From an uncultured virus (IMG/VR IMGVR_UViG_2850639881_000002) (taxonomy: Duplodnaviria; Heunggongvirae; Uroviricota; Caudoviricetes): a DNA stretch of 64,000 nt. The stretch is taken from the IMG/VR virus record IMGVR_UViG_2850639881_000002, one strand, 5' to 3'. The position numbers and the translations under genes are program-made. Below the pieces are notes generated by a model. That model did not search any database, was not told the DNA's origin, and saw only the letters and a list, made by a program, of their open reading frames with translations. Shown here piece by piece: positions 826-27,038 of the stretch. The stretch's first letter is position 1, and each line of letters starts with the position of its first letter.

Positions 826-1164
826 TCATACTGCCCTGAGCAGCATGACCGCCCGTCTGGCCACATCGGCGAAGGTGACGCCGATTGCCGCGCCGCCGAG
901 GCCGATGACGCCAAGCGCCCCCATCCCTATCAGCTTCCATTTGCGGACGTCCTCGGTCACCGGCTTCATCTCGGCAATTTCGTCTTTGACGAGCGTCAAC
1001 GATCCCTCGAGCGTTCCGACCCGTTCGACGAGTTCGTCGATGCGCCGGTTCATCGACGTCCGCCCGGCATCGGACCGGTCCTCCGACCGGCGGAAATCCT
1101 CGCGCAGATTCTTCACCTCGGCGATCAGGGTCCCGAGCTGTTGGTGAACCGTGGCGTCAACCAT
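826..1164 (-). CDS. DUF1515-like coiled-coil/TM protein, putative holin
   Basis: Coiled coil followed by C-terminal TM (IGMGALGVIGLGGAAIGV); last gene of the lysis cassette. Confidence 0.65.
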   Translation of the reverse strand: MVDATVHQQLGTLIAEVKNLREDFRRSEDRSDAGRTSMNRRIDELVERVGTLEGSLTLVKDEIAEMKPVTEDVRKWKLIGMGALGVIGLGGAAIGVTFADVARRAVMLLRAV

Positions 1165-1408
1165 CCCGCCGCTCCCCGTGCTTCGCGCATTCACCCTTTG
1201 TCCAGACGGACGCGGCACAAAGCCCGACGACCGTCCGGTCTATCCTGCGCTGGTCTGCGGCCGTGGCACCGCGAGCCCCGGCGAGGTCAGTGCGGACCAC
1301 CGCGCGCAGGCCGCTGACATTTGCCGGCGCCGAAGTTCCACAACCCGCCAGAAACAGAACAGGCATCATAGTCAAGGCGCTTCGCATCAGCGCTATCCGC
1401 CGCTTCAT
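1157..1408 (-). CDS. Rz1-like outer-membrane spanin lipoprotein
   Basis: Lipobox LAGC; overlaps the 3' part of the Rz-like gene in another frame. Confidence 0.7.
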   Translation of the reverse strand: MKRRIALMRSALTMMPVLFLAGCGTSAPANVSGLRAVVRTDLAGARGATAADQRRIDRTVVGLCAASVWTKGECAKHGERRDG

Positions 1409-1532
1409 TGTTTTGCCTTTCGATTGAATTGCGGACCGCCTGCGCTCCGTTTTCACGAATTTCCAGCACGGCCCAGGAAAGGGCGGCGCACACAAGCAGG
1501 CCGCCCAGGAACTTGCCCCATGGTATGTTCAT
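1287..1532 (-). CDS. Rz-like inner-membrane spanin
   Basis: N-terminal TM then helical periplasmic domain; ATGA overlap with the endolysin stop. Confidence 0.7.
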   Translation of the reverse strand: MNIPWGKFLGGLLVCAALSWAVLEIRENGAQAVRNSIERQNNEAADSADAKRLDYDACSVSGGLWNFGAGKCQRPARGGPH

Positions 1533-2347
1533 CGCCCGAGCCCCAGGGCGTCCCGAACCGCCGGCATCGACGAGATTGCATAGATCGCGAAGCCGACGAT
1601 CGTCGCCAGAATGGCAAGCTGCACCCGCCAGTCGAGCGCCACGAGGTTCAATTCCTTGAGCGCTGTGATGATGGTTCCACCGGCGGTCAACAGCCACGTC
1701 CAGAACCGCCCGGAACGGGCAACGGGCCTGTGCCGCACTTCGGACCGCACCGTCGGGGGCGACACGGCCGCTGTTGGCTGCGGCGTCGCATCCGAGGAGG
1801 GAGAGGCGGCGAGGACCTGGCGGAGCACCGCCTCGAGCTCATCCGGCTTCACCAACGCCTTGTTGAGCCCGTCCCCGGCATAATAGGACTGCCCGCGCTT
1901 TACCCGCCGCCGGTCGCCGTCGGTCTCGGCAAGCACAGGAAGCGATGCCCACTCCATCGCCAGCCGCCGGCCGAACTCGGTCACGCTGATCGCGCCGGAA
2001 ACGAAGCTTGCGAAACCGCGGCGATCCAGGAGATGAAGCCCCAACCTGTCCTGAAGCGCGGGCTCGAAGACCTGCGCCTCCTTGAGCCACGGAATTTCCC
2101 GCAGCAGCCCAACCAGTGTCGCGCGCATGAATTGATAGGCGCCGGCAGCGCTCGACCCATGCGCCTTCGACCAGGTCTTCTGGGCCGCAATCACCTCGCC
2201 GAGCGTCATCGCGGTCAGCGGCTTCGTCAGGCCGCCTTGCCTGTGGGCATAAATCACATCATAGGAGGCGCGGTCGTTCCGCCCGACTTCCGCTTCGCGG
2301 ATGAAGGCGAGCAGATGCGCCGCGCCGTGAGGCATGGTGTGGGTCAT
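1529..2347 (-). CDS. endolysin, lambda-lysozyme/transglycosylase-like, with C-terminal TM segments
   Basis: Motifs IREAE, SSAAGAYQF and EWASLP; hydrophobic C-terminus. Confidence 0.8.
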   Translation of the reverse strand: MTHTMPHGAAHLLAFIREAEVGRNDRASYDVIYAHRQGGLTKPLTAMTLGEVIAAQKTWSKAHGSSAAGAYQFMRATLVGLLREIPWLKEAQVFEPALQDRLGLHLLDRRGFASFVSGAISVTEFGRRLAMEWASLPVLAETDGDRRRVKRGQSYYAGDGLNKALVKPDELEAVLRQVLAASPSSDATPQPTAAVSPPTVRSEVRHRPVARSGRFWTWLLTAGGTIITALKELNLVALDWRVQLAILATIVGFAIYAISSMPAVRDALGLGR

Positions 2348-2429
2348 GGTGGTACCTTTGGTGTTTGGAAAGGAAAACCCCGCTTATCGCGGGGGTTCAG
2401 GGTTTGGTCATCAGGCGCCGTCGCGACGG

Positions 2430-2837: not shown

Positions 2838-3582
2838 TTACTGCTTCACCAATAGTCCTTGACCGGTCGGTATGGTCAATATTGATTGCCCATGGGCAGC
2901 AGCAAACTCATTCCACATCGCATTCTGCTGCTCGCACCCTCTAAAGGCGTAGTCGTCAAGCACGATAGTCGCCCCGGTGACGACCCTATCCCAGACCCTC
3001 TCTATGCATTCTTGCTCGTATTTCGCGACATTGAGGTCGATTCTTTTCGATCGGTACGCCATCCAGGGTTGCCGGCAGAAGTCCCTTTACCAAAATTGCA
3101 TTCTCGAACTTGGAGAAGTTTCGCTTTGCGATCTCATGAACATCGAAATAGATGCCCGAGTTACGCTGCTTTGCCAGCATTGCCTCGTTAACAGTCATCT
3201 CGCCTTCGGGAATGCCTGCGAAGGTGTCGAAGAGCCAGAATTTCCGGTCGAGCACGCAAAAATTAAGATACTCACAAACGGTCATCGAAAGCAGGCCGGC
3301 GTTCACGCCGAATTCGACGAAATCGCCTTGAAGTTTGAGCGCTCGAAGTGCGGCAAAGCAGCACGTGTGAGCCCGCCAACGAATGTCAGGGACACGCTTG
3401 CGCTTCTGCCACGCCGCTCTGTTACCCGCCTCAGCGAAGCGCCAAGCAGCGGCAAATCGCGGCTCGTTCAGAAAATCCGTGTTCTTGTTTATGACCCTGA
3501 AGCCGTCGGCCTTGTAACCGGGTAGAGAGTCCTCGCCTTCTGCAAGGAACCGAAGGCGCTTCTTGACTTCGCGGATACCCAT
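2838..3582 (-). pseudogene. TylF/MycF-family O-methyltransferase, frameshifted near 3040
   Basis: GDFVEFGV and FDTFAG in one frame; IDLN..IVLDDY..PTGQG continues in another frame. Confidence 0.8.
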
Positions 3583-3971
3583 TTCACACTCCGCCACTAT
3601 ATCCACGCCGGCGCAAGGGCCATAGGTCGCGGACGGCCTAAGATGAGGCGGCCAGCGTTCCAACTCCGAGTGGGGCCGGTTTGCGCCGTTAGTTTAGCCG
3701 CAATCGTGAGCCGTTTGCCAATGAACTCGAAATCCGTCCTCGCTAGGGGTAGGAGGAAGATACCAAGTCAACGTCAATCGGTGGCAAACAGCAATCGCGC
3801 CTCCGCGTCTAACCACTCAGCGAGAACCATTACGAAGCCGAGATATGCTGGGCGACTCGCAACATCGACGTCACTGCCAACGTCGCTGTCCTGTTACCCT
3901 TGGATGTGCCCGGTTGCGGGCCGTGGCAACATTCGATATGAGCAGCAAGAATCCAATTCCGAGACAAATTA

Positions 3972-4814
3972 ATGGCCAAATCGAAGGTCGTGGTCGTCTT
4001 TCCTGTTTACAACGGTGAAAGGACTCTCTTCAGCAGTCTACAGTGCATCGCCGATCAGACGTTTCGAGATTTCGAAGCGATTGTTGTCGACAATAAATCG
4101 ACAGACGACACACTAGCCGTCGCTGAGCAGTTTTGTAGATCGGATCGTCGCTTCTCCATTGTGAGAAACGAACAGCATGTCAGTGCACCGGAGAACTTCG
4201 CTCGCGCTTTCCAACTCGGCGCAACGCGTGGCGAATATTTCTGCCTGCGCGCATGCGATGACCATTCTTCTCCAGATTTTTTGGCGTGCTTGGTCGAGGC
4301 CCTTGACCGGGACCCCACCAAATTACTTGCGGCATGCTCTACAAAGGTGGTCGGGCCGAACGGAAGCAGAATAAAATCTCCCAATAAAGCCACCCTTGAC
4401 TTCACCCAATCGTACGTTTCAGGGCGTGTGCCAAGAAACCTAACGTTCCCGGCAGAATGGATTTACGGCCTGTTTAGGGCCAGCGCCAAAGACATATTGA
4501 TGACACGCTGGTTCGAACTCGGCAATCCCTGGTGTCTCGCATCCTATGTCGTGGCAGAGTTTGTCGTTCGTGACTCGGTCGCGTACGTGCAAGGACCAAC
4601 ATACGACTTTACTGAGGGCTCTGGTTCGGAGCAACGTTATGGAGCAAAGAGTTTCCGTAACAAGCTTGATCAACGGCTAAGGTATACATTTGGATGCTAT
4701 AAGCTAGCAAGAAAACTTCCTCCGGTGAGATTTCTAACAAGGTTAAAGTTCTTCAAAATGTGCTGGAATGATGCACGGAGGAAGACGCGTTACAAGCTTT
4801 TCTGGCTTTTTTGA
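3972..4814 (+). CDS. glycosyltransferase family 2
   Basis: PVYNGE, IVVDNKSTDDT and CDD motifs; visibly lower GC than flanks. Confidence 0.9.
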   Translation: MAKSKVVVVFPVYNGERTLFSSLQCIADQTFRDFEAIVVDNKSTDDTLAVAEQFCRSDRRFSIVRNEQHVSAPENFARAFQLGATRGEYFCLRACDDHSSPDFLACLVEALDRDPTKLLAACSTKVVGPNGSRIKSPNKATLDFTQSYVSGRVPRNLTFPAEWIYGLFRASAKDILMTRWFELGNPWCLASYVVAEFVVRDSVAYVQGPTYDFTEGSGSEQRYGAKSFRNKLDQRLRYTFGCYKLARKLPPVRFLTRLKFFKMCWNDARRKTRYKLFWLF

Positions 4815-4943: not shown

Positions 4944-5438
4944 TTAAAGATCGAGCGCGGCGGTCCACACTGCGTCAATTTGCATCTCGGTTAAGCCGAG
5001 CGCCCCTCCGATGACTGCAATCAATGACTGCAACCGGTTGAACGAGGTGGCGTATTCCCATTCGATCTGGACGCGGTCCCTTTCGGGGCCGACCGGCATG
5101 GTATCAATCGCAGCCATTACCTGGACCGGAGAAATCCCCGCATTGACAAGCCCCAGACGCAATTGTCGTGCTGAAAGCGAGGGCATAAAGGAGCGTATCT
5201 GTTCTCCTGTCGGCTGCGTGTACGGCTGGATTAGGAATTTCGGATTGTCGGCGAGCCACTTGCGAATGGTAGGATTAAGGCCGAACGTATCATCGGGTCT
5301 CGATAGATAGTCGCAATCGTAGGTTTGACCGCTTATATCAGTCAGGTTGATCGAGAGCTCGTAAACTTCCGGCTCTCCGGTCGCACTGATCGCACGGACT
5401 TCATTGAGCGCCATTCTGCCTTGGGTGGAGCTAATCAT
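4944..5438 (-). CDS. tail-fibre-associated (assembly/chaperone-like) protein
   Basis: Directly downstream of the tail fibre; LSARQLRLGL..IEWEYA motif typical of such proteins. Confidence 0.6.
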   Translation of the reverse strand: MISSTQGRMALNEVRAISATGEPEVYELSINLTDISGQTYDCDYLSRPDDTFGLNPTIRKWLADNPKFLIQPYTQPTGEQIRSFMPSLSARQLRLGLVNAGISPVQVMAAIDTMPVGPERDRVQIEWEYATSFNRLQSLIAVIGGALGLTEMQIDAVWTAALDL

Positions 5439-5440
5439 AC

Positions 5441-6639
5441 TTATGCGGTCCTTTGGATGATAAGCCAATCTGACGAAGTGACGATCCCTCGCACACGCCA
5501 AGTTCCTGAAAGCGCTGAACCGGCCCCGGAATAGCCGCTCTGAACGTAAGCGTTGGTGCTGTACAAACAGGGGATCACTGCAGCTTGTCGCGCGGGGTTG
5601 GAGCCATTCTGCGCCATCGCCAGGACTGTCCCTATTGGGAAGCTGGTGTTAGTAGATGATGTTCCAGTGTAAACCTCCGCCGCCACGAACCCCAACGCAT
5701 GCGTATGGGTCGTCCCGCTAACTGAATTCGTGGTCGCGTTCGTAATGTCCGAGGGTGTTCCCAATGTCAGGGTGCGGTTTGCGGAAATAGCACCGCCACC
5801 GGCCAGGCCATTCCCGGCTATCACCTGGACCGCATTGCTTGCAGGCGTATAGCCGTAGAGCGTGTTGATGTCGGGAGCTGCGAGGTTGCCCGAGTGCCAG
5901 ATCGTATTGTGCGCTGCCACTGAGTTGTCATAGAATTTCAACGCGTCAACACTGTTCACGTTCGACAGATACAGGTAGTCACCCGTATCGTCGTTCGAGA
6001 CGCGGATGCCATCGCCGTTCGCCGTGCCGTCCCGGTGCTGGATATAGCCCTTGCGGTCGTTGGCTTTCCAGAATCCGACATAAGGATCGCCCGTCGCCGA
6101 GCCGATGAGTTTGACGGCCTCACCATCCGTGGTTACGGCGATCTGAGTGAAATCGACGTAGGCGCCGCCAAGCCGGCCTGAGGGTATCGTGCCGGTCGTA
6201 AGGTTCGCGGCGTTGTTGGCACCAAGCGTCGCACGCGCCGTCGCGGCATCCGCATCGTCGAGCATGGTCTGCGCAAAAGCGGAAACGCCGAGCGTCGTAA
6301 GCGCGGCGCCGGCCGTTGCGTCATCCAGCAGCGTCCGCGCAAACGGCGTCAACGTCGTCGTCGCATAGGCGTCCGCCGCGGTCGTGTAGATCATCCTGTC
6401 CGCACCCGTCGCAAGGCCGGCAATCGAAGTCAGCGCCGCGCCGCTCCCTGGGCGCCGAGTGCTGTACGGGCCGCGCTGGCGCTTGTGGCGCCCGTTCCGC
6501 CCGCAGTGATCGGTCGTGCCGCATTGGCGTCGGCCGTCAGGTCGTCAATGAGCGCGTTATAGGGCACGCTCTGGATCGTCGTGTTCGGCACCCCCTTGGT
6601 GCCCGCCGGTGGGGAATAGACTCCGCCTGTTCTTGGCAA
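5441..6639 (-). pseudogene. tail fibre, split by a one-base frameshift near 6447
   Basis: TTG start with GGAGG RBS (LPRTGGVYSPP..GGTGATSASAARTALG); second frame resumes AALTSIAGL..LTPFARTLLDD; C-terminal GTWR motif. Confidence 0.8.
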
Positions 6640-6765
6640 GACAGCCTCCATGAAAAAAGCCTCCCGATGGGAGGCCGCGAAACAATTGGAATGTAGCTTG
6701 GGGCGGACTGGCGCCTGCCACCTCCACACGTGCATCTTTGGATTGCAGCGAGATGAAATGTTACG

Positions 6766-8124
6766 TCAGGACCGCCCCTTCCCGGCCGCAAAAAGCCGGC
6801 CGTAGTCCACTCGGCGCAAGCCGTCCGGCCCGCGGCTCACCGCGTCGGGGCGGGTCTTCTCCACCTCCTGCGCCATCACGCCGATATGCTTCGGCCCGAG
6901 GCCCTGCTCGCCCCTGTAGTTGAACTCGTAGAGATTGTGCCCCTTGAGCCTGCCGACCTTCTCGATGTTCTTCTTGGCGCGGCGATCGGATAGCGGGATC
7001 TTCTCGAACATCCCAAGGACATTCCCGAGCAGATTGCCGCCTCCCTGCTGCCGGGCGTTATAGGCGGACATTTGGTTTTGATAGTTCTGCTGCACCAGCC
7101 CGGCATAGTCGACCGGCTGGATCGACTGCCCCTGCGTCGGCACGAAGTTGGGGTTCGTCACCTGCGCGCCGGAAAGCAGCGCCGAGATCTCGTTGATCGG
7201 CTGGTTGCGCAACGCATATTGCTCGTTGAGATGGTTCGCGCGCGCGGTATTCTCGGCATTGATCTGCGCCTGTCGTGCGTTGAAGCTCTGGTCTTGCAGC
7301 GCATTGTTGGCGGCCGTCGCCGACTGGCCGTTCTGGTGCATCTGCTGCTTGGCGCTGTTGCCGAAGTCGGCGTTCTGCAGAGCCTGGGCGTAGCCCTGCG
7401 CCTGCGCCGCATTCTCGAAGCTCGCCTTCTGGTTGGCGAGATTGGCGAGACGCGTCTGCTCCTGCCCGGCGTTCAGCACGGCAGCGATGCGGGCGTCGTT
7501 GGACGTCCGGTTCGCCTCGTCGATCGCCCGGTTATAGGCCTCCGATCCCGGCTGCAGGCCCTGGTTGGCAAGCCGCGTTTCCAGCGCCGCCCGGTCGCGC
7601 TCGAACTGCGGGTTGAGCCGCGCCATCAGCGCATTCTCGTATTTCGACGTGTCGAAGTCCGTCTCGTAGCTGCGCGCAATGTTGCCGGCATTGCCGACGG
7701 ACGTTGCGAGCTCGGGTCCGCTGGAAAATTGTTGGTATCGCGGCAGTGTCAGCTTCAAAGGGTCGCCGGCGGCCGGGGCCTTCGAAATGTCCATCGGCTT
7801 GCCGAGCAGATCGTTCAGCCGGCTCGATTGCGTGTTCGCCAGCGTGGCAAGGTTCTTCTCGGCCGCCTCCGTCTGGAGCTTGATGGCCTTCTGCGCATCG
7901 GAAAGCTCCTGTTTCGCCGTCGCGACGGGAAGGTCGTAGACGTTCCCGCTCAAGGGGTCGGTCCATTTCTGCGTCGTATAGCTGTAGGTGAGGCTGCCGT
8001 CCGGCGTCATTTGGTTGACATTGCCCATGTATCCGTTGGCAACCGCCGTGCCAATGTTGGTCGCGGTCTGTGCCGCTGCCGTCGCCTTCGGATCCGGAGG
8101 AGCGGGCGCTTTTGATTTTCCCAT
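6766..8124 (-). CDS. virion/ejection protein with C-terminal peptidase S74 chaperone domain
   Basis: MGKSKAPAPPDP N-terminus, Q/N-rich body, SDRRAKKNI..IGVMAQEV..VDY. Confidence 0.75.
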   Translation of the reverse strand: MGKSKAPAPPDPKATAAAQTATNIGTAVANGYMGNVNQMTPDGSLTYSYTTQKWTDPLSGNVYDLPVATAKQELSDAQKAIKLQTEAAEKNLATLANTQSSRLNDLLGKPMDISKAPAAGDPLKLTLPRYQQFSSGPELATSVGNAGNIARSYETDFDTSKYENALMARLNPQFERDRAALETRLANQGLQPGSEAYNRAIDEANRTSNDARIAAVLNAGQEQTRLANLANQKASFENAAQAQGYAQALQNADFGNSAKQQMHQNGQSATAANNALQDQSFNARQAQINAENTARANHLNEQYALRNQPINEISALLSGAQVTNPNFVPTQGQSIQPVDYAGLVQQNYQNQMSAYNARQQGGGNLLGNVLGMFEKIPLSDRRAKKNIEKVGRLKGHNLYEFNYRGEQGLGPKHIGVMAQEVEKTRPDAVSRGPDGLRRVDYGRLFAAGKGRS

Positions 8125-8129
8125 AGAAC

Positions 8130-8186
8130 ACCTTTTGAGCGGGATGAGGAAAAGTGTGCGCGGTTTTCCGCTCGCATGCCGCGCTA
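8130..8186. repeat. palindromic repeat of the GGAAAAGTG..GGTTTTCC family
   Basis: GAGCGGGATGAGGAAAAGTGTGCGCGGTTTTCCGCTCGCATGCCGCGCTA; related to the repeat at 20517. Confidence 0.55.
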
Positions 8187-8636
8187 CGATTGGAATCGAT
8201 TGACGGGATGCGCCCGCCAGTCGTTGTCTGTCAGAGTGAAGATGATCTCCGCCTCATCCCGCCCGCGAAGGCGGGGGATGCGGTAGCTCGTGAAACCGAA
8301 GCGCCGGGCGATCGAGACCATGCCAGCATTCTCCTCCGAGACGCGCAGCACCGCCATCTGGCAGCCGATCTCGTCGAAGGGATAGCCGAACATGGCCTTC
8401 AGCACCGGCCGCGTCAGCCAGCCTTTGCTGGTGGCGGCGGCCGAAAGCTCGACGACGCCCGCTTCAGGCGAATAATTGTGGTAGACGACGCCGGCGACGA
8501 GCCTTCCCTCCTCCGTCACGCCCAGCGTGGTGAAGTCGGCAAAGCCCCTTTCGCAGCCGTCGATATGGGCGGCGACGAATCCGGCGATCGCATGGTTGGT
8601 CGCGGGGTCGCCCGCCCCGCCCCAGATGATGTTCAA
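8184..8636 (-). CDS. phage GNAT-family acetyltransferase
   Basis: TTG start overlapping the upstream stop; motifs MFGYPFDEIGC and RRFGF. Confidence 0.75.
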   Translation of the reverse strand: MNIIWGGAGDPATNHAIAGFVAAHIDGCERGFADFTTLGVTEEGRLVAGVVYHNYSPEAGVVELSAAATSKGWLTRPVLKAMFGYPFDEIGCQMAVLRVSEENAGMVSIARRFGFTSYRIPRLRGRDEAEIIFTLTDNDWRAHPVNRFQS

Positions 8637-11758: not shown

Positions 11759-11931
11759 CCTTCGTCACCTGGAAGAGGATCGTTGCGTTCGGCCTTGCCC
11801 TGTGCGATCAGGATCTTTGCCGCCTTGACCGGCAAATCGAGTACGGTGCCGGCTGGAATCCGTTCCTCGTCGATCGCCCAGGTATCATAGAGAAGCCTGA
11901 CGGGTACCGTGGTCGTCTTTGTGTCTGCCAT
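11755..11931 (-). CDS. small phage protein (58 aa, MADTKTTTVPVRLLYDTW...)
   Basis: Read by hand; GGAG RBS; stop overlaps the next start. Confidence 0.6.
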   Translation of the reverse strand: MADTKTTTVPVRLLYDTWAIDEERIPAGTVLDLPVKAAKILIAQGKAERNDPLPGDEG

Positions 11932-18537: not shown

Positions 18538-18705
18538 CCGTGGCGATTTCCCGTTTTCTGGTTAGAGTCCGCGCTTGGAGCATTTCTGATGCACGATCAG
18601 AAGAAGGGTCGGCGGGAGTGTCGCCGCTGGACTGCGATCGAATAAGTTCAATAATGGTTTCCGGCGCGCTTACGGCGCGGATCGCTCGGACGCAGACCAG
18701 GAGAC

Positions 18706-19053
18706 GTGCTCATGATCGAAGGCCATTGCCATTGCAGGGCGGTCCGCATCGCGGTACCGGTCCGTCCCGAAACCTTGGGCGATTGCAATTGCTCGCTCTG
18801 TAGCCGGCTCGGCGCGCTCTGGGGCTACTACGCCCCGAGCGACGTCACGGTAAGTGACGAAAACAAGCACCTCGTCGGCTACGTGCAGGGCGACAAGACG
18901 CTTACGGCTTTCCATTGCGGCATCTGCGGCTGCACCACGCACTGGTCGCCGATCGGCCGCGGTTCGGCGAAGATGGGCGTGAACCTGCGGATGTTCGACC
19001 GCTCAGTCTGGGAGGATATCCCGCACCGCCTCATCGATGGCGCAGCTTGGTGA
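18706..19053 (+). CDS. GFA family Zn-binding protein
   Basis: GHCHC, CNCSLC and FHCGICG. Confidence 0.9.
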   Translation: MLMIEGHCHCRAVRIAVPVRPETLGDCNCSLCSRLGALWGYYAPSDVTVSDENKHLVGYVQGDKTLTAFHCGICGCTTHWSPIGRGSAKMGVNLRMFDRSVWEDIPHRLIDGAAW

Positions 19054-19084
19054 AAGCCGGCGGGCGCCTCGATGGTACCCGCTA

Positions 19085-19194
19085 ACTGCATGTCTTTGTC
19101 CTTAAATCGACTTCGATTTTAGGACAACGACATGCAGCAATTCAAAGTGCTTCAGCGACCTTTTGCGCGCCTGATAAGGCGCGCGGCGCTGTAG
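19085..19194 (+). repeat. palindromic mosaic repeat, copy 2 (degenerate partial copy at ~19398-19460)
   Basis: Near-identical to 649..754. Confidence 0.85.
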
Positions 19195-19197
19195 GCG

Positions 19198-19353
19198 TCA
19201 TATCCTGCCCATCAGCAAGAGGATCAAGAGTATGACGACCACCACTCCGAGAAGCCCGGAAGGGCCATAGCCCCAGCTGGCCGAATAGGGCCAGGCCGGA
19301 ACCGCTCCGATCAGGAGCAGGATCAGAATAACGAGAAGAACAGTTCCAAGCAT
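19198..19353 (-). CDS. DUF3309-family small membrane protein
   Basis: MLGTVLLVILILLLIGAVPAWPYSASWGYGPSG..., read by hand; GGAGG RBS. Confidence 0.85.
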   Translation of the reverse strand: MLGTVLLVILILLLIGAVPAWPYSASWGYGPSGLLGVVVVILLILLLMGRI

Positions 19354-19675
19354 ATCGCGATCCTCCGCTGCACGATTCGCTGCTACGGCGACAAGATCAT
19401 GCAGCTATTCAAGTTACCGCAGCGATTTTCTCGCGTCTTGAAGGACGAAGAACGCTGCAAACTGCGTTCACATCCTATCGAATGCTGAAAGGTCTCTGTT
19501 GGTTCCGATCTTAAAGCAGGCCGGAACGCGCGCAGGGCGGGCTCGGTCCTCAGGCGGCATTGATCTGCGTGTACCGAGGGGAACAGCTTGCAAGTTCCAA
19601 AGGCATTTCTATGGGTTCGTTCTCGGCACCTGGAGAACATGCTAAACTTTCACTGGCAAAAGGGGGGAAGTCAAA

Positions 19676-20080
19676 ATGCCATGTATTGCGAACCTCTATT
19701 TCAAGACAGCCATTATCTTTTTGATCTTGGGCATCTCGATCGGCCTGCACATGTCGATCTCGGGCAATCACGCCGCCACCGGCGCGCATGCGCATGCCAA
19801 CCTGCTCGGCTGGGTAACGATGGCAATCTTCGGCGGCTACCATGCGCTCAATCCGCAAAAGGCGGCTAGGCGCCTGGCAACGATCCAATACGCCGTCTAC
19901 ACCTTCGGTGTGGCCGTCTTGATCCCGTCGCTCTACCTGTTGCTCTCCGGCAACGCCGCCATGGAGCCGATTGTCGCCGTTTCGTCGCTCATCGCCTTTG
20001 CCGGTGTTCTGCTGTTCGCCGTTATCATCTTCTCGAACAGCGAAGCGGCTGTGACGACCGCAACATCGCCGGCGCGCTGA
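19676..20080 (+). CDS. 4-TM membrane protein with HAHxNLLGW motif (heme-copper oxidase subunit I fragment-like family)
   Basis: Hydrophobic helices and conserved His motif. Confidence 0.7.
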   Translation: MPCIANLYFKTAIIFLILGISIGLHMSISGNHAATGAHAHANLLGWVTMAIFGGYHALNPQKAARRLATIQYAVYTFGVAVLIPSLYLLLSGNAAMEPIVAVSSLIAFAGVLLFAVIIFSNSEAAVTTATSPAR

Positions 20081-20503
20081 TCAGGGCGCCTTTTCCAAGC
20101 GCAAGGCACCGTCGCGCGCCGGTCGCCTCGGCCGGCGCGCCCGGGTTTTTCCCGCATCGAGCAGCGGCCGGATCGCCGCGTCCAGCGCGCGGATCCGCTC
20201 GATCAACTGCTCGTCCGAAAGCTCGTCCATGCCGCCCGCAGCCGCGTTCAAATCCTTGGGCAGAAGCGAGGCGACGAGCTTCAGGTAGGTCTCGGGCTTT
20301 TCCGCCCGAATGCGGGCGATCACGCCAACGCCGTGCGCCGCGAAATCCGCCCGCACCGCGTCGAGGAACGCGCTCCCCAACTGGCCACGCCACCTGGCTG
20401 CTCCCATCGGCGTGACGGATCCAGCCGCTGCATCGTCCGGCAACTCCGTCTGCGGTGCGGCGTTTTCGTCATCAAGCATCGCGCTCTCCGCTTGGTTGTC
20501 CAT
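20081..20503 (-). CDS. putative terminase small subunit-like protein
   Basis: FLDAVRADF..HG..I..R.EKP..YLKLVASLLPKD and DELSDEQL; same strand as, and upstream of, TerL; GAGG RBS. Confidence 0.55.
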   Translation of the reverse strand: MDNQAESAMLDDENAAPQTELPDDAAAGSVTPMGAARWRGQLGSAFLDAVRADFAAHGVGVIARIRAEKPETYLKLVASLLPKDLNAAAGGMDELSDEQLIERIRALDAAIRPLLDAGKTRARRPRRPARDGALRLEKAP

Positions 20504-20516
20504 CGCTCCGCCTCAT

Positions 20517-20621
20517 TAGAGCAATTCCAGGAAAAGTGTGTCACGGCTTTCCGTCCGGAATTGCGTAGTTTCAAGACGTTAGATCCTTTCATTGTGTCAG
20601 CGAAACGATGAAAGGATCTGA
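20517..20621. repeat. alphaproteobacterial palindromic repeat (TAGAGCAATTCCAGGAAAAGTG type) plus a second hairpin
   Basis: GCAATTCC..GGAATTGC and AGATCCTTTCAT..ATGAAAGGATCT inverted repeats. Confidence 0.65.
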
Positions 20622-20757
20622 GTATGCGGAGTTTTCGACGCGTGCATCCGATGCACGCGTCGCCACCCATAATTGCGCCAGAATCGCGACTCAGATTGAA
20701 TACCGAAGACCAGCATTGCCTGTCTTCGTCGAACCATTTCGCCATCAGCAGGGAAAC

Positions 20758-21165
20758 ATGCGCCGCATACTTGCCGTCCTCTTGATTGCCGCCACGACCG
20801 CTTCCGCCGCCGCCGCAGGTCAATCCGGCAAGCCGCGATATTTCGTCAAGGCCTGGCTTCAAAAGGCCGACAAAACCTTCGAGCACACGACCAGTTGGTG
20901 CGGTCCCGACCAGCATTGCTTGGTTCCAATCGGGGAGGACATGATCGAACTACGCGAGTTGTCCGGCTCCAGTTACTATCTGAGGTTCATTTCCGCTTCG
21001 TCGGAGGACACTCCCTGTTGCGTCTTCCGCAACGGCTCCCGCGAGGCGCGTCTTGAGAGCGAGTACCCTCGTGTTGCAACACTTTATTACAGACCGGAGA
21101 TATGGGGTGGCCGAGGAGTCACGAAGTTCGGTAGGCTCATCATCGTCGTCGAGGACCTGTACTAG
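20758..21165 (+). CDS. secreted hypothetical protein, paralog A
   Basis: Signal peptide; PRYFVKAWLQKADK core shared with the next ORF. Confidence 0.75.
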   Translation: MRRILAVLLIAATTASAAAAGQSGKPRYFVKAWLQKADKTFEHTTSWCGPDQHCLVPIGEDMIELRELSGSSYYLRFISASSEDTPCCVFRNGSREARLESEYPRVATLYYRPEIWGGRGVTKFGRLIIVVEDLY

Positions 21166-21291
21166 GGTCGAAACGGCCGTGCAGTTGATCAACCGGCAGC
21201 ACTTCGATAGCGACCATGTCGATGCTCCCTCAAATTCAATCGAGAAGCAGCGGTCTGCGATGCTTCCACCCGACATAGGTAGATCGAAAAC

Positions 21292-21732
21292 ATGCGTCCG
21301 CTCTTGGCTGCCTTCCTTATGGCCGCTTCACTCGCGCCCGCCTTCGCGGCGAACCAGAGCGGCGAACCGCGCTACTTCGTCAAGGCCTGGCTCCAAAAGG
21401 CCGACAAGAGTTTCGAGCACGCAACCGGTTGGTGCGATGGCAACGACCTCTGTTTGCTTCCGATTGCGGAGCATATGATAGAACTGCGTGAGGTGTCGGG
21501 CGACAGCTATCTGCTTTCCTTCAAATCCGCTCCCCCCGAGCCTAAACCCTGCTGCATATTCCGCGACGGCTCCTTCCAGATATGGCTCAGAAGCGGTAGC
21601 CCTCGTGTCGCCGTGCTCTTCTACCCACCCTATAAGCGGGGCGAAGTTCGCGTCACCCAGTTCGGCAGGCTTATCATTGCGGTCGAGGTCCTGAACAAGC
21701 CGAATCCGGTAACGCCGGCTTTACGCCTGTAA
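21292..21732 (+). CDS. secreted hypothetical protein, paralog B
   Basis: Signal peptide; same four Cys and FGRLII end. Confidence 0.75.
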   Translation: MRPLLAAFLMAASLAPAFAANQSGEPRYFVKAWLQKADKSFEHATGWCDGNDLCLLPIAEHMIELREVSGDSYLLSFKSAPPEPKPCCIFRDGSFQIWLRSGSPRVAVLFYPPYKRGEVRVTQFGRLIIAVEVLNKPNPVTPALRL

Positions 21733-21753
21733 GCACGAGCGCCGAGAGGTTTC

Positions 21754-21859
21754 CTACTGCATGTCTCCTTAAATCGACTTCGATTTAAGGACAAAGACAT
21801 GCAGCAATTCAAAGTGCTACAGCACGTTTGCGCGCCTGATAAGGCGCGCGGCGCTGCAG
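21754..21859 (+). repeat. palindromic mosaic repeat, copy 3
   Basis: Near-identical to 649..754. Confidence 0.85.
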
Positions 21860-22876
21860 TGCCCTCCGGCAAGTAAGAGTTCGGTCCGAACAGCACTCTC
21901 AAGCAAGCTTTCAGCGTAAGCCCTTGCTTCCGCCGGGCTCATATAGCCAGGTCCCGGGGCAAGCAGAGTATGCCTCTCAATCCTGGCTACCCCTACTCAA
22001 CAACCATTGCTTTGCTTCTCCGCCCGCAATCCGCACTCTGGCAATCGTCGCGGCCGGCGATGCTGCCGTTAGCTCACCTGCCCTCTTGGAAGGCATGCAT
22101 GAACCTCGCGTCGTAACGCTTCCGAACCGCCCTGCGGATTCGGGTCGACGCGAAAGGCGCATCGCCGGCCGCATACGACGCCGCTACGTCTCAAGACGCG
22201 CAGGTCGCCGTAAGCTTGATCTGATAACACTTGAGAGGAAGTCTGGTGCGCCCCTCGCTAGAGGCGGGGTGCCTGCATCAATCACTGGGAAGGCACCAGC
22301 GAGATGAGGACAAAATTCCTATCCTTGATTTATGGAATACTCCAGCAGACCTTCTCATGCAAGCCCCGCTCAGCGGCGGGACGCTCAATTTGGGATTTAG
22401 CCACAGAATTCTGTGCTCCGGTGTAAACCCCGCAATCGCGAATGCCGCCCCAATGGGATCCACGTTCCTCACCGGGCCGAAACGGCAAAATCGTCCAAGC
22501 ATCTTATTATACAAACGTATATTATAAACTACTTGCATAATACTTTAGGCTCTGTTTCAATCGCCAAACGGCTGATGCACAAGGGCTGGGCCTAGGTCTT
22601 TTGAAGAATGCTTCAAACCGCATGACGCTATCTAATACCCCCGGCATCGCACGATTTGCGGACGCTGGCCTGATGCTCGCTCCGGCGAGCCGTACTATCA
22701 TTTGAATGCTGTTGGCAGCCAACGCTTGAAAGCTGACAGTCATATTTGAACTGACTGCCAAGACGCGGTGCGAACCGCAATTATTTTAGAACCAAAACAT
22801 ATTACCCGCGTCCCGGCCGCGCCGGGAACAGAAAGGCCCTCAACGCATTGCCTTCGCGGGAGAAGGAGTTGTTCAC

Positions 22877-23071
22877 ATGCGCAACCATTGGATCTATGTC
22901 GCCATCGGATTTGTCGCTGGCGCTGCACTGTTTCTCTCCACCGCCTGGCAGCGGACGCCGCCGGTCCAGGAAGTCACCCTAAAGCTCGAAAAGACCAGTC
23001 GTCTGCAAGCCCCCACCATCCAGACGTCTTTCGTGATGGAGCGCTTCGGTCCTGCCAGGGCGGTAGAGTAG
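22877..23071 (+). CDS. small membrane-anchored hypothetical protein
   Basis: AAGGAG RBS; N-terminal TM. Confidence 0.7.
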   Translation: MRNHWIYVAIGFVAGAALFLSTAWQRTPPVQEVTLKLEKTSRLQAPTIQTSFVMERFGPARAVE

Positions 23072-23095
23072 CAACTCAACGGCTGCCTCGCCCTC

Positions 23096-23197
23096 CTGCA
23101 TGTTTCCTTAAATCGTCGCCGATTCAAGGATAAGAAGATGCAGCAATTCAAAGTGCTGCAGCGACCTCTACGTCTGAAAAGACGCGCGGCGCTGCAG
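23096..23197 (+). repeat. palindromic mosaic repeat, copy 4
   Basis: Near-identical to 649..754. Confidence 0.85.
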
Positions 23198-23277
23198 TGC
23201 CCTTGCGTTTCGTCGGCGGATGGGCAAGGTACTGGCGCCGACCCATCCGGCCGGCGCGAGAAGCGAGGGAGCCTGCC

Positions 23278-23457
23278 TTGAATTCTGACGAGAAGCCCGC
23301 TGCGACGATCAGGGTCGAAAAGCGCATGAACGGCCGCTGGGCCTTCGCGCTCACCTATCGCGGCGTGACCTACCCTGCCCAAGGCCAATTTGGCAGCCAG
23401 CTGCAGGCGCAAGCTGCGGCCCAGGCCGCGATGAAATTGCTTGAGAGGCGGGGCTGA
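23278..23457 (+). CDS. small hypothetical protein
   Basis: TTG start with GGGAG RBS; plausible beta-beta-alpha product. Confidence 0.5.
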   Translation: MNSDEKPAATIRVEKRMNGRWAFALTYRGVTYPAQGQFGSQLQAQAAAQAAMKLLERRG

Positions 23458-23485
23458 AACGGCCCCCACCGGTTCGCCATGCGTG

Positions 23486-23887
23486 TCAGTCGTAAGGCGA
23501 ATTGCACTGACGGCGGCGGCCGTTGAACGGCTGGTAGGAGTTGTCGTCCGGACGGTACGAGCCGTAGCGCTCGAGGCACCAGCGCAGATGGGCATTCAAA
23601 TCGAGGCGAATCTCGCGGCGGGGGCGAATGCGCGGCCCGACTGTTCCCGGCAAGGGCCCGCCAACCGTCGCTCCTGGCCCTACGCCGATGTCGGGCCTTT
23701 GCCCCTGATAGCGCGACGCGCCATAGCTTGGATAGCGCGGCAGGATAAAGTCCCTGTATTGTCGCTCGACGAAGAGCTCATGCTTGGAGGGCCCGCCGCA
23801 AATGCCGATGCACGTTTGAGCCCCTCCCGGGGCGGCACCGGCCACCGCACTCCCAAGCGCCAAGGCAATGATAAATGCTCTTCTCAC
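23486..23887 (-). CDS. BA14K family protein
   Basis: Signal peptide; HLRWCLERYGSYRPDDNSYQPFNGRRRQC. Confidence 0.88.
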   Translation of the reverse strand: MRRAFIIALALGSAVAGAAPGGAQTCIGICGGPSKHELFVERQYRDFILPRYPSYGASRYQGQRPDIGVGPGATVGGPLPGTVGPRIRPRREIRLDLNAHLRWCLERYGSYRPDDNSYQPFNGRRRQCNSPYD

Positions 23888-24107
23888 TGGCTTCTGTCTC
23901 GCGCAACAGTCCCGCTACGCGCGCCTCTTCAGGGATCGCGCCGGAGGGCGCCTTGGTCGATAGTAGCAGAATGTCGACCGTCCCGCCCCTCAATTTGTTA
24001 AGCTGGCCCATGGCGGCGACACCGAAACGCAAATCGACACGGACGACGCTGACCGCCTCGTTCCCGAGGCGGGCAGTCACTATAACGAAGACTCGCCTAT
24101 AGCTTGC

Positions 24108-24608
24108 TTATAGGTAAGGCGAAACGCACAGTCGACGCGGCCCATAATAGGGCTGATAAGTGTTGTCGTAGGCCCGATAGGACCGATAGCGCCCATAGCA
24201 CCAGCGGACATGGGGGTTACTTCCGGCATAATATCGCGGTGCCGAATTGTACCTTGGCTGCGCCAGCAGCCCGCCGATGATCGCGCCGGCCGCAAGACCG
24301 CCGAACAGTGCGCCTATATCATCGTCGTCGTCATCGTAGTGTCGGTAGTGATGGCGGCGGTATCCGTTTCGATAGTACCGGTTGCTATAATGCCCACGCC
24401 GATAGTCGCGCCCGCGAAAACAGGGATATCGGCACCCGCTCCCTTTGAATTGTTCACCCCGTTCATAAGAGAACTGAACCCGCTGAACATCGGCGGTTTC
24501 CGATTTTACCGTCGGCATGGTGGGAAACGCCCCTGCGGGCGGCGGAACGCTGCTCATCGCCGTCGCCAGCGACAGGGCAATGATTGCTAGCCTCTTCATT
24601 GCCATCAC
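24108..24608 (-). CDS. BA14K family protein
   Basis: [10 protein letters not shown] and [29 protein letters not shown]. Confidence 0.9.
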
Positions 24609-24770
24609 CTTTCTTAGGATCTTTCATCCCTTCGATAGAGAGAATGGCTGAATTCCGCATTTGTGCCAGCGCTTGGAGAGCGATCACGAAGTGTTGATCT
24701 CCCTCATTACCGTTGGCTCGACCGGACTGGTTCGGTTCAGCCTTCAGTCCGGCACACGCACCAGCATTGA

Positions 24771-24790
24771 AATAGGATAATAATCCTATT
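24771..24790. promoter_or_regulatory. inverted repeat AATAGGAT-N4-ATCCTATT, putative operator or late-promoter element
   Basis: Perfect 8-bp arms at the 3' end of the putative antiterminator gene. Confidence 0.5.
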
Positions 24791-25406
24791 CTTGCGCAAG
24801 CAAATGATCCCTCTCCCCGTAATCGCACAGGCCCTTTTCGAAGACGAGGGCGTTCAAACCCCGCTTGAGCCACAGCAATTGTGCCTCCGGCATCATTCGC
24901 AGGCCTTCGTAGTCCATCACGCAGACGTTGAAGACCGTGGTTTTGACCTGCCGCCCCTCGTCGCACCCGAGCAACACGCCATCGAGCCGCATCATTCTTT
25001 CTGTCGCCCGCTTTATCTGACGATGGTGCTCCTCGGTCGTCTCGGCGGGATGCCCCTGTACCCGGTCGATCGCTTGAGCGCGTATGCTCGGGAAAGGGAT
25101 GCCGGTCAGGTGATAGTATCTTGCCATCACTCTCCCATAGTCATCGCCCGCTGCCCGCTGCGCTTCCGTGATCCGCCCATCGAGGAAGAGGCGTCCCAGC
25201 GTGTAGCCGGCAAAGCAGCTGCTCGTTTCGAGCCCATGCATGCGCTTCCTCGCCGCCAGCGCGACCGCCATGGCCTCCTTCTCGCTTTCGCGCTTTGACC
25301 AGTCCGGCTTGATCTTGCCGCAGGCGAAGCGCTCGGCATTCGATTTGCGCGGACGTCCGAGCTGCGCCTTGCGCTTCGCACGGAGTTTCTGAGCCTTGCT
25401 CATCAT
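24786..25406 (-). CDS. putative late regulator / antiterminator (DUF6456/GafZ-like)
   Basis: LGRLFLDGRITEAQRAAGDDY and LKRGLNAL resemble the DUF6456 pattern; occupies the Q-like position. Confidence 0.5.
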   Translation of the reverse strand: MMSKAQKLRAKRKAQLGRPRKSNAERFACGKIKPDWSKRESEKEAMAVALAARKRMHGLETSSCFAGYTLGRLFLDGRITEAQRAAGDDYGRVMARYYHLTGIPFPSIRAQAIDRVQGHPAETTEEHHRQIKRATERMMRLDGVLLGCDEGRQVKTTVFNVCVMDYEGLRMMPEAQLLWLKRGLNALVFEKGLCDYGERDHLLAQE

Positions 25407-25542
25407 TGATTTGTCCTTTCGATATTATCGGGGCGAGGAAGAAAGCGCGACCGGGTCCCCGGCGCGCTCTAAATCGGGAGCCGGCGGGCATCAGGATGCG
25501 CTGCAGGTGATGAATTGCTTTAAAGCGGCGATGGGCGGCCGA

Positions 25543-26040
25543 TCACGGCACAGGGCGATTCACGGCTGCGAGCACCGTCGTGTGGTCGCGATGAAAGATG
25601 CGGCCGATCCTCGGTAGCGACAGATCTCTCCGCTTCTCGTAGACCGCACGCATGCAGGCATGCCGGGGTTTCACCAACCGACGATCGCGCCGGACGCTGA
25701 CAATGTCCGCCCACGTCACGCCAGGAAAGTCCGCGAGCACCGCCGCAACGATCTCCTCGATCGAGGATCTGTCGCCATCCGCTTCGTCGTCGTCATCCGC
25801 CCGACGACCTGACAGCAGCACTTGAGCTTGCGCGAGCAGCCGCGCCTGAGCATCGGCCAAATCGTCTTCCAACGCAGCTATTCGACGCGCTTTTGCGGCG
25901 TTCTCCGTGGCGAGTTCAGCCAGCTGTGCCTCCAGTTCGGCGATTGCGGACCATCGTCCTGAGTTGCCCGCGGAGAGGACCAGTCGCTCACGGACCGCCA
26001 GATAATGGCGATGCTGCCTTGTGAGTTGCGAATTGGTCAT
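25543..26040 (-). CDS. coiled-coil plus DnaA C-terminal-like HTH protein
   Basis: RRLVKPRH..DLSLPRIGRIFHRDHTTVLAAV; AAGGA RBS. Confidence 0.8.
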   Translation of the reverse strand: MTNSQLTRQHRHYLAVRERLVLSAGNSGRWSAIAELEAQLAELATENAAKARRIAALEDDLADAQARLLAQAQVLLSGRRADDDDEADGDRSSIEEIVAAVLADFPGVTWADIVSVRRDRRLVKPRHACMRAVYEKRRDLSLPRIGRIFHRDHTTVLAAVNRPVP

Positions 26041-26348
26041 GCGCTTTTCCTTCCTGCTGTCCCGAGCCCATGACCCTCTGCCGAATCCCGGATCTCCCCG
26101 GAAGCAGCACGGGGCCACATCAATGGTAGACGCGGGCAGCAAACGCAGCCGTCCATAGCTTGCCCGCTCACTGTACCGTCCTCTCGGTGCTCGATGGCAC
26201 GCTGGGCGACTGCATCCTCTCCTTCGGAGATCGGATATGGGTAGTTCATAGGCGATTGTCTCCCCTTGACCGTTCCACCCATGAATGACACCATGCATGT
26301 TGTAATGTCAACATGATTTATGTTACACGTGTTGCTATGCTTCATGTC

Positions 26349-27038
26349 ATGAACGAAAAAGCTGAACGATTGCGCCAGGCACGCATTACTGCGGGGTACC
26401 GCTTTGCCTCCGATGCGGCGAACGCCCTTGGCATCGTCGCCTCGACTTATCGCGCCCACGAGAACGGCCAGAACGAATTTGAGTTTGCCGAGGCCAAGAT
26501 CTACGCGCGCAAGTTTAACGTCGATCCCGTTTGGCTCATGGGTGACGCAGCGGGCGCAGAGATCGGCATCCCGATCCCGACCCCTAAACCGCGAGCGGTC
26601 GATCCACCGAACGCCACCGTTATCGAAAAGGTGGTCGGACAGGCCAGGAAAATCCCTGTCTTCGGCCAGGCCGTAGGCGGTGTAGATGGTGAATTTCTGA
26701 TGAATGGCAATGTGTTGTACGATGTCCTTGCGCCACCGATCCTTTCGGACATCTCCGGAGCCTATGCGGTCTCGATATCCGGCGATTCGATGTCTCCCCG
26801 TTACGAAGACGGCGAAGTTTGTTTCGTCGACCCCAGTCGTCGCGTGAAGAGGGGCGACTATGTGATCGCCCAGATTCGCCTGGAAGAAGGCGGCGCCCCG
26901 CTCGCTTACGTCAAGAAGTTCATTCGACACAACAGTTCCGAACTGGTGCTTGAGCAGTTCAATCCTCAGAAAGAACTGCGTTTCGAAGCCCACACGGTGC
27001 ACTCCGTCCACTACATCGCGCTCGCCGGCAACGCCTGA
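26349..27038 (+). CDS. XRE-HTH/S24 peptidase (CI/LexA-like) repressor
   Basis: N-terminal HTH, AVGG cleavage region, catalytic GDSM and YVKK. Confidence 0.9.
   Translation: MNEKAERLRQARITAGYRFASDAANALGIVASTYRAHENGQNEFEFAEAKIYARKFNVDPVWLMGDAAGAEIGIPIPTPKPRAVDPPNATVIEKVVGQARKIPVFGQAVGGVDGEFLMNGNVLYDVLAPPILSDISGAYAVSISGDSMSPRYEDGEVCFVDPSRRVKRGDYVIAQIRLEEGGAPLAYVKKFIRHNSSELVLEQFNPQKELRFEAHTVHSVHYIALAGNA

Follow-up and report, generated by a model that had tools for sequence, protein, structure and literature searches.

Can the particle genes of a temperate phage outlast the loss of its means to excise and replicate, and, if they can, what keeps them intact? The question is raised by a cluster of podovirus-type genes in a 64,000-nucleotide stretch of DNA from an uncultured virus (IMG/VR record IMGVR_UViG_2850639881_000002; hereafter the window, meaning the whole stretch). 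A first-pass annotation, made from the sequence alone, had proposed that this cluster might be a podovirus-derived gene transfer agent (GTA) or another domesticated particle. A replication-less particle cluster under selection has stood up to closer analysis, whereas GTA function itself stays a proposal. The account favored here, with about an even chance of being right, is that the cluster is a chromosomally fixed descendant of a temperate podovirus of the phiGT1/RHEph18 type that would still build particles packaging chromosomal DNA in place. We read it as a domesticated or self-maintaining particle cluster, for which a GTA-like or lateral-transduction-like function would be plausible. The integrase and att sites are gone, as are nearly all genes for replication and recombination and two large ejection proteins; a complete packaging, head, tail-hub, fiber and lysis set remains, together with an expressed CI/LexA-type repressor. 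The element has been lost in a third of the species.

According to Pfam and PHROG scans, positions 826-28340 form one minus-strand phage module running from a terS-like gene through to lysis genes, with the repressor adjoining. Both scans agree with the first-pass description of a single run of packaging, head, tail and lysis genes whose head and packaging open reading frames (ORFs) are intact. The late module spans ~20.5 kb down to 0.8 kb, all on the minus strand (ORF list with a GC3 filter, Pfam and PHROG), and the GC and GC3 of the cluster are host-like. The whole element measures ~27.5 kb; the extent first given, 826-27038, is part of it, but the right end lies further on, at ~28340. When the 66 ORFs of 1-34412 were searched with Pfam and PHROG, no integrase, primase, helicase or recombinase family was matched in 1-32327, as had been claimed, although an ORF with a DnaA_C-type helix-turn-helix (HTH) domain, decaying in relatives, had been overlooked. 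That domain was also the only match in an NCBIfam scan of 18 unexplained window ORFs. The sole integrase among the 66 ORFs (33156-34412) is part of a different prophage. No att repeat was noted among the listed window repeats, and no att search was made beyond that listing.

Over 20.6 kb, the window matches a contig of Sinorhizobium fredii USDA 205 at 99.7% identity, and a scan of one genome per species brought up 40 loci that carry a portal relative. The 17 Sinorhizobium loci all have GFA and a membrane-protein gene as cargo between terS and terL; DUF3309 is found there too in 15, L007 and L009 being the two without it. The lysis end adjoins an SLC13 permease in 8 of the 13 loci searched, two of the five misses being DNA that ends before the flank. 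The repressor end adjoins pentapeptide/Tim44 genes in S. meliloti Ak57, USDA 6670, S. americanum, BR816, S. kostiense and LCM 4579; in the window, the host genes to the right of the cluster are pentapeptide, Tim44, glycosyltransferase and Stf0 genes, followed by a tRNA-Lys (32598-32673). Taken together, these features place the cluster at a single, orthologous site on the chromosome of many Sinorhizobium species. A further group of species has Tim44 150-200 kb off and lacks the repressor side, and in an Ensifer-type clade Tim44 is 0.8-1.3 Mb from the cluster; the claim of same-site orthology therefore does not extend to these two groups. In the Genome Taxonomy Database (GTDB) genus of S. americanum, 20 of 31 genomes carry a full-length, stop-free portal gene at 88-94% identity. 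An early impression that most species lack adaptors, hub and fiber proved to be an artefact of insertions that had pushed these genes beyond the 10-kb flanks; wider DNA has them.

Gene integrity was followed for 12 core genes in 12 genomes, a copy being counted as intact when stop-free at a coverage of at least 90%. By this measure, 136 of the 144 gene cells are intact. Two of the exceptions are terL copies discussed below. In the others, the portal of S. saheli is truncated, S. medicae has no acetyltransferase, the S74 gene of USDA 6670 is matched in two pieces, the USDA 6670 scaffold and the S. chiapasense 58-aa head protein have divergent ends, and one gene is cut at a stretch edge. Ratios of nonsynonymous to synonymous substitution (dN/dS) were calculated by the Nei-Gojobori method for relatives against the window, within Sinorhizobium, at a structural-gene dS of 0.4-0.7. 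They are 0.08-0.12 for the portal, 0.09-0.13 for terL, 0.04-0.13 for the capsid and ~0.10 for the hub, and reach 0.1-0.4 for the adaptors, ~0.2 for the S74 protein and 0.17-0.39 for the scaffold; the endolysin, 61-72% identical in nine relatives, gives 0.2-0.4. The host values are 0.14-0.25 for Tim44 and 0.05-0.17 for the pentapeptide gene. In a single lineage with 0.25 neutral substitutions per site, ~73 stops would be expected in eight of the genes, and the window has none. Lack of an integrase, cargo inserted between terS and terL and a fixed flank are derived traits common to all the copies, so their divergence arose after immobilization, and the structural genes have been under purifying selection since then. 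The first-pass annotation had proposed comparing synteny and dN/dS across Sinorhizobium, and the comparison yields shared flanks and cargo with dN/dS ~0.1. Patchy spread with neutral decay of capsid, portal and terL, which it had named as the refuting pattern, was not seen: the cluster is at one locus and mostly intact.

Vertical descent is accompanied by exchange between species. A tree of terL, portal and capsid (19 rows), set against one of Tim44 and the pentapeptide gene (22 rows), returns the same five clades, the deeper order being unresolved in these quick trees; the first pass had proposed to compare the TerL tree with the species tree. Distances at fourfold-degenerate sites are nevertheless mosaic. 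Between the window and S. americanum they are 0.12 for the scaffold and 0.14 for the capsid, 0.24-0.32 for five other structural genes and 0.38 for both flank genes; between S. americanum and BR816, they are 0.12 for S74 and 0.15 for GFA, against 0.39-0.41 for the flank genes and 0.40 for terL. The portal distance from the window to 10 of 11 other Sinorhizobium species is 0.28-0.32 (S. saheli, 0.38), with flank-gene distances of 0.33-0.40 for close species and up to 0.45-0.62. Saturation was considered as a cause of the flat Nei-Gojobori dS of the portal and set aside, as fourfold distances of 0.28-0.32 against host values of 0.45-0.6, together with portal distances that exceed the host ones in close pairs, speak for exchange. 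These mosaic synonymous distances indicate that segments of the cluster moved between species after the flank genes had diverged. Since no examined copy has regained the ejection-protein genes IVPC and IVPD or an integrase, the donors must be other elements of the same lineage.

That lineage has been described before. Hardies et al. reported phiGT1-like "dual tubeA" podoviruses, the dual tubeA being a hallmark of the phiGT1 family, and two lineages of Sinorhizobium prophages, "m" and "f" (Hardies et al., 2023; Viruses 15:1475, PMC10386132). According to that report, Sino f occurs in three genomes, S. americanum and two S. fredii chromosomes; it is integrase-less and att-less, with an R/S of ~0.11 and a character "still elusive," it has a tRNA-Lys close to where attL would be expected and, beside the structural genes, a syntenic flank, and the m/f split is placed at ~77 Mya against a host split at 67 Mya (PMC10386132). 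The window has the same structural module, host group, lack of an integrase, tRNA-Lys near the expected attL (32598-32673) and syntenic flank, and gene content and order assign its cluster to this phiGT1/RHEph18-like "Sino f" lineage. The absence of integrase and att and the selection signal are thus already in print for three genomes (PMC10386132), whereas the genus-wide orthology, the losses, the missing IVPC and IVPD, the cargo hot spots and the expression state are new. Neither "gene transfer agent" nor "domesticat" occurs in the main text of PMC10386132, and full-text literature searching, with subscription journals outside its scope, found no GTA proposal for this cluster.

Among phages, a portal search placed the Rhizobium phages RHEph18, RHph_N2 and RHph_Y25 first (65%), followed by Sulfitobacter pCB2047-A/C and phiGT1 (56-58%). 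Identity to RHEph18 is 85.5% for the capsid, 80% for terL, 65-68% for the portal and 47% for the terS-like protein. All of these phages share the terS-to-fiber gene order of the window, but they are 40-44 kb long and have an integrase, recombination genes, IVPC and IVPD and a far larger early region, none of which the window element has. RHEph18 (44.2 kb) devotes ~21 kb to its early region, as opposed to ~8 kb of mostly unrecognizable ORFs, largely degenerate, upstream in the window. Set against RHEph18, the window is without the proteins of 744 and 675 aa after S74, most of the genes for fiber and lysis, the integrase and recombination genes and the bulk of the early genes.

How such an element might work follows from what it has kept. 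On the favored account, loss of the repressor, probably by RecA-stimulated self-cleavage, would turn on what remains of the early genes, among them the one for a conserved protein of 206 aa (24786-25406), with the late genes to follow. Capsids of about phage size would be assembled, and the terminase would package the chromosome in place, either as random DNA (GTA-like) or outward from a pac site in the cluster (lateral-transduction-like), after which the cell would lyse. We infer packaging in place from the fact that the DNA can neither excise nor replicate itself.

The control of such a program was examined in four raw-read RNA runs mapped on 10301-30300, with the strand checked through the orientation of Tim44 and the repressor. 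Contigs from RNA runs that hold 99% of the words of the stretch were not counted as expression because whole genomes assemble from such runs. Read depth is 100-155 on the repressor in all four runs, 1-9 on the structural genes and 170-820 on Tim44, and cargo at 19676-20080 and 20608-21732 is transcribed, as is BA14K. In three of the four runs, no reads fall on 10301-14969, which means that the strain behind them is different from the window in that part. The pattern is that of a repressed prophage with its switch in place, and it does not separate the hypotheses. A minus-strand peak at 14303-14969, in the spacer between portal and head genes, stands out in run X24 (depth 72, against 2-7 on either side). 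The spacer ORF 14506-14946 is not conserved as an ORF, having stops in L005 and L006, and the peak could be a small RNA or the promoter of the adjacent 78-aa gene itself.

Several observations weigh against the favored account. The terL gene carries a stop in S. medicae and is frameshifted in S. psoraleae, the endolysin is missing from BR816, and S. terangae and S. meliloti Ak57 have lost the portal-to-S74 genes in large deletions. In 11 of the 31 genomes, the portal is split (one), fragmentary (four) or not found (six). The host baseline for both selection and exchange consists of two flank genes only. Within the cluster, cargo on the opposite strand stands between terS and terL, and a hairpin with a T run behind it lies just upstream of the fiber start. 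The fiber itself is frameshifted at ~6442 in the window, with its start at 6651 and a premature stop at 6430, as had been noted in the first pass; the frameshift is a one-base difference, and both L003, the 99.7%-identical assembly, and two sister species (L005 and L006) have an uninterrupted ORF. The late genes are nearly silent in the four RNA runs.

Further points on the same side concern size, control and delivery. RcGTA-type heads carry 5-15 kb of DNA (PMC9632790). A capsid 86% identical to that of the 44.2-kb RHEph18 makes a head too small for the ~27.5-kb cluster unlikely, and a reduced head of the GTA type is, by the same comparison, unlikely here. RcGTA-type agents are controlled by host regulators. 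The CtrA box TTAA-N7-TTAA is absent from the window (0.08 expected), and the LexA-type GTTC-N7-GTTC has two matches against 1.8 expected, none at a promoter of interest; the control that can be discerned appears to be a phage-type repressor, not a host regulator. Lastly, the fiber gene directly follows the S74 gene, and position and ORF size leave no IVPC or IVPD gene in between, so the earlier remark that no large ejection proteins are visible was correct. An IVPC homologue occupies that place in all seven non-syntenic, prophage-type relatives (L015, L027, L028, L033 and L035-L037). Relics of IVPC persist as a stop-bearing remnant in USDA 6670 and a 78-residue piece in S. medicae. The endolysin-like ORF 1529-2347 was considered as a further remnant and dropped, having no similarity to the 744-aa protein of RHEph18. 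In P22, ejection proteins of this sort are required for DNA ejection. The lack of IVPC and IVPD, to the extent that sequence can tell, argues against the usual podovirus delivery route.

Of the alternatives, one that is possible though rather unlikely is a selfish, immobile GTA of podovirus type, which once induced would package its own locus together with neighboring chromosome, in place and into full-size heads, and would persist and spread among Sinorhizobium species by homologous replacement of resident alleles. Such an agent would account together for the loss of the integrase, for purifying selection, for synonymous distances that are mosaic and smaller than in the flank genes, and for the cassettes, described below, with fragments of portal and capsid genes at their borders. 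Without an ejectosome, it would need another entry route, such as the DNA-uptake genes of the recipient. RcGTA enters by way of the recipient's own DNA-uptake genes.

Similarly unlikely is a cryptic prophage with no particle function, kept by the host for its immunity and cargo genes (repressor, membrane proteins, BA14K and glycosyltransferase) and with its structural ORFs intact through overwriting by related elements or phages. The expressed repressor and cargo and the almost silent late genes fit this alternative, as do the recombination evident in the mosaic synonymous distances, the loss of parts in many lineages and the disappearance of the ejection genes. It sits poorly with 136 of 144 core copies intact at dN/dS ~0.1. 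Overwriting by complete phages should also sometimes have restored IVPC, IVPD or an integrase, which none of the Sinorhizobium loci examined has, and the apparent donors, which look like f elements, would themselves need selection to stay intact.

An improbable third alternative is a helper-dependent, satellite-like element that makes its own heads and hub and takes ejection proteins, and perhaps replication, from a co-resident or infecting relative, candidates being the integrase-bearing m-type or RHEph18-type phages. Only ejection and early functions are missing, and related integrase-type prophages are co-resident in some genomes; G012 and G013, for example, each carry a second copy with a portal identity of 71-74%. 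In addition, three strains carry both m and f types (PMC10386132). Unlike known satellites, however, the cluster has no excision or replication module of its own, and its locus is fixed and co-diverges with the host. An IVPC-like match was found in one of five close genomes, beside another prophage fragment. No IVPD-like match was found in the five with the 675-aa protein of RHEph18 as the query, which says little, as this query has no positive control and also fails on phiGT1 and nine other relatives; for this reason, the absence of IVPD is judged from position and ORF size.

Still less probable is that the particles serve a purpose other than DNA transfer, such as killing or marking competitors, carrying proteins or acting as decoys that spoil the assembly of related phages. 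Heads, hub and fibers are under selection while the proteins for DNA ejection are not, and two sets of genes could be read in this direction: cassettes of a 222-aa ORF and DUF6258 behind 3' portal fragments in the Ensifer clade and a Tlde1-domain ORF inside the S. medicae cluster. Against this stand terS and terL, which are conserved as strongly as the capsid genes and point to DNA packaging. The window has no 222-aa/DUF6258-type cassette, and searches turned up neither a family nor a function for the ORFs in such cassettes. Finally, an active temperate phage that integrates and replicates by unrecognized means, for instance with a host recombinase, would account for the mosaic synonymous distances but is very improbable given the same flanks across species, clades that match the host tree, an early region of ~8 kb that is degenerate next to the ~21 kb of RHEph18, the absent ejection genes and the kilobases of host-like genes that interrupt the cluster in relatives.

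The genes behind the favored account can be described in order, all on the minus strand. The terS-like gene (20081-20503; phrog_8771) encodes a protein whose 47% identity extends over 116 aa to a RHEph18 ORF overlapping the start of its terL. It is followed, beyond the cargo, by terL (17107-18537; PF03237 and PF17289) and a SU10-type portal (15053-17107; PF23899, E 5e-216). A spacer between portal and head genes (14506-15052) holds the 146-aa ORF 14506-14946, and the head genes encode a 78-aa protein (14268-14504; phrog_12935), a scaffold (13155-14108; phrog_3927, E 4e-65), a SU10-type major capsid protein (11998-12993; PF17236, E 1e-81) and two small head-module proteins of 107 and 58 aa (11435-11931; phrog_3982 and phrog_8441), which have RHEph18 homologues. 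Two paralogous tubular tail A adaptors (10243-10845 and 10842-11438; PF24175 SU10_adaptor, E 1e-4 and 2e-31; phrog_6013 and phrog_2941) and a tubular tail B hub or nozzle (8633-10246; phrog_5107, E 2e-176; syntenic with RHEph18 6565-8163) reproduce the dual-tubeA and tubeB arrangement of the phiGT1 family. An N-acetyltransferase-like head protein follows (8184-8642; phrog_4470, E 2e-39), the IVPA and P22 gp14 counterpart, 42% identical to the RHEph18 N-acyltransferase and corresponding to phiGT1 gp16. Next is a 452-aa S74-domain virion protein (6766-8124; PF13884, E 3e-10; phrog_6121, E 4e-144), the counterpart of phiGT1 gp17 in the IVPB position. The order of LUZ24/SU10-type portal, scaffold, capsid, acetyltransferase and S74 protein is thus phiGT1-like. 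In the phiGT1 virion, as reported, gp17 (S74, IVPB) is accompanied by gp18 (IVPC, with a muramidase domain) and gp19 (IVPD) (PMC10386132).

The tail fiber (5441-6651; phrog_2097, phrog_24210 and phrog_21249) combines a conserved N-terminal anchor with a variable C-terminus, and a phrog_6034 protein lies downstream of it (4944-5501; E 3e-48). The lysis end comprises an endolysin-like protein with a C-terminal membrane segment (1529-2347; phrog_90, E 2e-35), a small membrane-anchored ORF that may be spanin-like (1287-1532; an N-terminal hydrophobic segment, read from an internal Met of ORF 1287-1697; no family match) and a DUF1515 protein (826-1218; PF07439, E 9e-61; phrog_5211) with a coiled coil and a membrane helix at residues 96-114. 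The DUF1515 gene also stands beside the endolysin in relatives. On the plus strand, two tandem paralogues for small lipoproteins (1-273 and 357-647; lipobox-like N-termini, no family match) may mark the outer edge of the element; one to five copies are found between DUF1515 and the SLC13 permease in relatives.

At the other end, the CI/LexA-type repressor (26313-27038, plus strand) joins an HTH to an S24 peptidase domain (PF00717, E 3e-12; phrog_4, E 4e-28) at dN/dS 0.11-0.18. Three small plus-strand ORFs without a family match (27210-28340), a leftover of the repressor-side early operon, extend up to the host genes and are kept beside the repressor in L002, L004, L006, L007 and L030. The DnaA_C-type HTH ORF (25543-26298, minus strand; PF08299, E 3e-13) is present with stops or as partial copies in relatives, and assembly L003 lacks window positions 25599-26224, 626 bp of this ORF; it appears to be the decaying remnant of a replication or early gene. 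Assembly L003 also has a one-base deletion at 26368, early in the repressor ORF, which may impair the repressor or be an assembly error. The 206-aa protein (minus strand; phrog_15385; dN/dS 0.05-0.14) is 50% identical to a 215-aa ORF upstream of the RHEph18 packaging genes and is a candidate late regulator. Between these genes and terS lies a degenerate, expressed region of early and cargo genes on mixed strands (20608-24608), with many stop-bearing fragments in relatives, that includes BA14K (24108-24608, minus strand; PF07886) and a pair of plus-strand paralogues without a family match (20608-21165 and 21292-21732; 61-62% alike; RNA in all four runs).

The cargo between terL and terS consists of GFA (18706-19053, plus strand) and DUF3309 (19198-19353, minus strand), both identified with Pfam, and an expressed protein with three predicted membrane helices (19676-20080, plus strand), with dN/dS 0.03-0.2. 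RHEph18 carries DUF3309 beside its packaging genes, so DUF3309 is no mark of host origin; the interleaving of host-type material described in the first pass holds for the ~107-bp repeats, which are real and occur on Sinorhizobium replicons, but not for this phage-borne gene. The repeats lie at 649-755, 19085-19191 and 21756-21856, are 87-91% alike and have many copies on Sinorhizobium replicons, and RNA reads join across them. Between fiber and lysis genes, a TylF-like methyltransferase is broken into two minus-strand ORFs that divide PF05711 between them (2838-3062 and 2986-3663); it is accompanied on the plus strand by an unassigned ORF (3643-3972) and a GT2 glycosyltransferase (3972-4814; PF00535, E 7e-18).

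In relatives, insertion hot spots are located at terL/portal, portal/head genes, capsid/adaptors, S74/fiber and fiber/lysis. The portal/head-gene spacer, with insertions of 2.5-7 kb, is a cargo hot spot. Genes of host-like or effector-like character (ABC transporter, M20 peptidase, methyltransferase and DUF6973 genes and a Tlde1/YkuD-domain ORF) are inserted among the structural genes, for example in L007 (12766-14553), L010 (13614-14768), L013 (14611-16987) and L008 (8366-9118 and 13702-14361). Members of the Ensifer clade (L024, 13800-21800; G015, G019, G021, G022, G023 and G026) have an intact portal and an intact capsid gene, each followed by several partial 3' copies, and cassettes such as the 222-aa ORF with DUF6258 lie between these copies. 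This layout resembles the orphan-cassette arrays of polymorphic toxins, or repeated cassette exchange with phage genes as recombination arms. As for chromosomal position, the cluster is near the middle of the record in the complete chromosomes L025 and L038 (1.90-1.92 of 3.95 Mb and 1.95-1.97 of 4.02 Mb) and near 1.9-2.1 Mb in several other genomes; it may lie close to the replication terminus.

A second, T7-like prophage begins at the tRNA-Lys and occupies 32598-63057, running rightward to or past the end of the window. Besides the integrase at 33156-34412, it encodes a repressor-like protein, two primase-like proteins, terL, a T7-type portal, a capsid protein and tubular tails A and B. Its large proteins are one of 1768 aa and an internal virion protein of 863 aa that has a transglycosylase domain.

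Compared with known systems, the cluster shares with the RcGTA-type agents of Rhodobacter and Caulobacter a phage-derived set of head, tail and lysis genes, the absence of replication and integration genes, purifying selection and silence in most cells. It is a phage-derived structural cluster without the means to replicate or transfer itself as a unit, and it is inherited with the host under purifying selection, alongside exchange between species and 11 of 31 portals broken or missing. In contrast, RcGTA is siphovirus-like with small heads, whereas the window cluster is of podovirus type (SU10), with a head that is probably full-size, a phage repressor and no ejection proteins. The RcGTA marker GTA_TIM (PF13547) was matched in none of the 31 genus genomes, while the control matches in Caulobacter. 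In a genus without GTA_TIM, the cluster, if a transfer agent, would be a new, podovirus-derived type. In lateral transduction in Staphylococcus aureus, complete prophages excise late and are packaged in place from a pac site. Such packaging from an unexcised prophage would likewise move adjacent chromosome, but the window element cannot excise at all. Capsid-forming satellites of the phage-inducible chromosomal islands (cf-PICIs) have their own integrase and replication module and make heads without tail genes. A satellite of this type was considered and rejected for the window, which has no integrase or replication genes yet has a tail hub and fiber.

To our knowledge, the well-studied GTAs all derive from long-tailed phages. 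If the cluster is a GTA, it would be the first from a short-tailed phage lineage, in genetically tractable, nitrogen-fixing crop symbionts. It also offers a test case for what lets a phage remnant without an integrase pass through speciation undamaged, whether benefit to the host, self-transduction with homologous replacement or dependence on a helper. If there is no transfer, the lesson would be that a GTA takes more than intact ORFs and purifying selection. If the particles do move nearby segments of the chromosome, they would shape gene flow among rhizobia.

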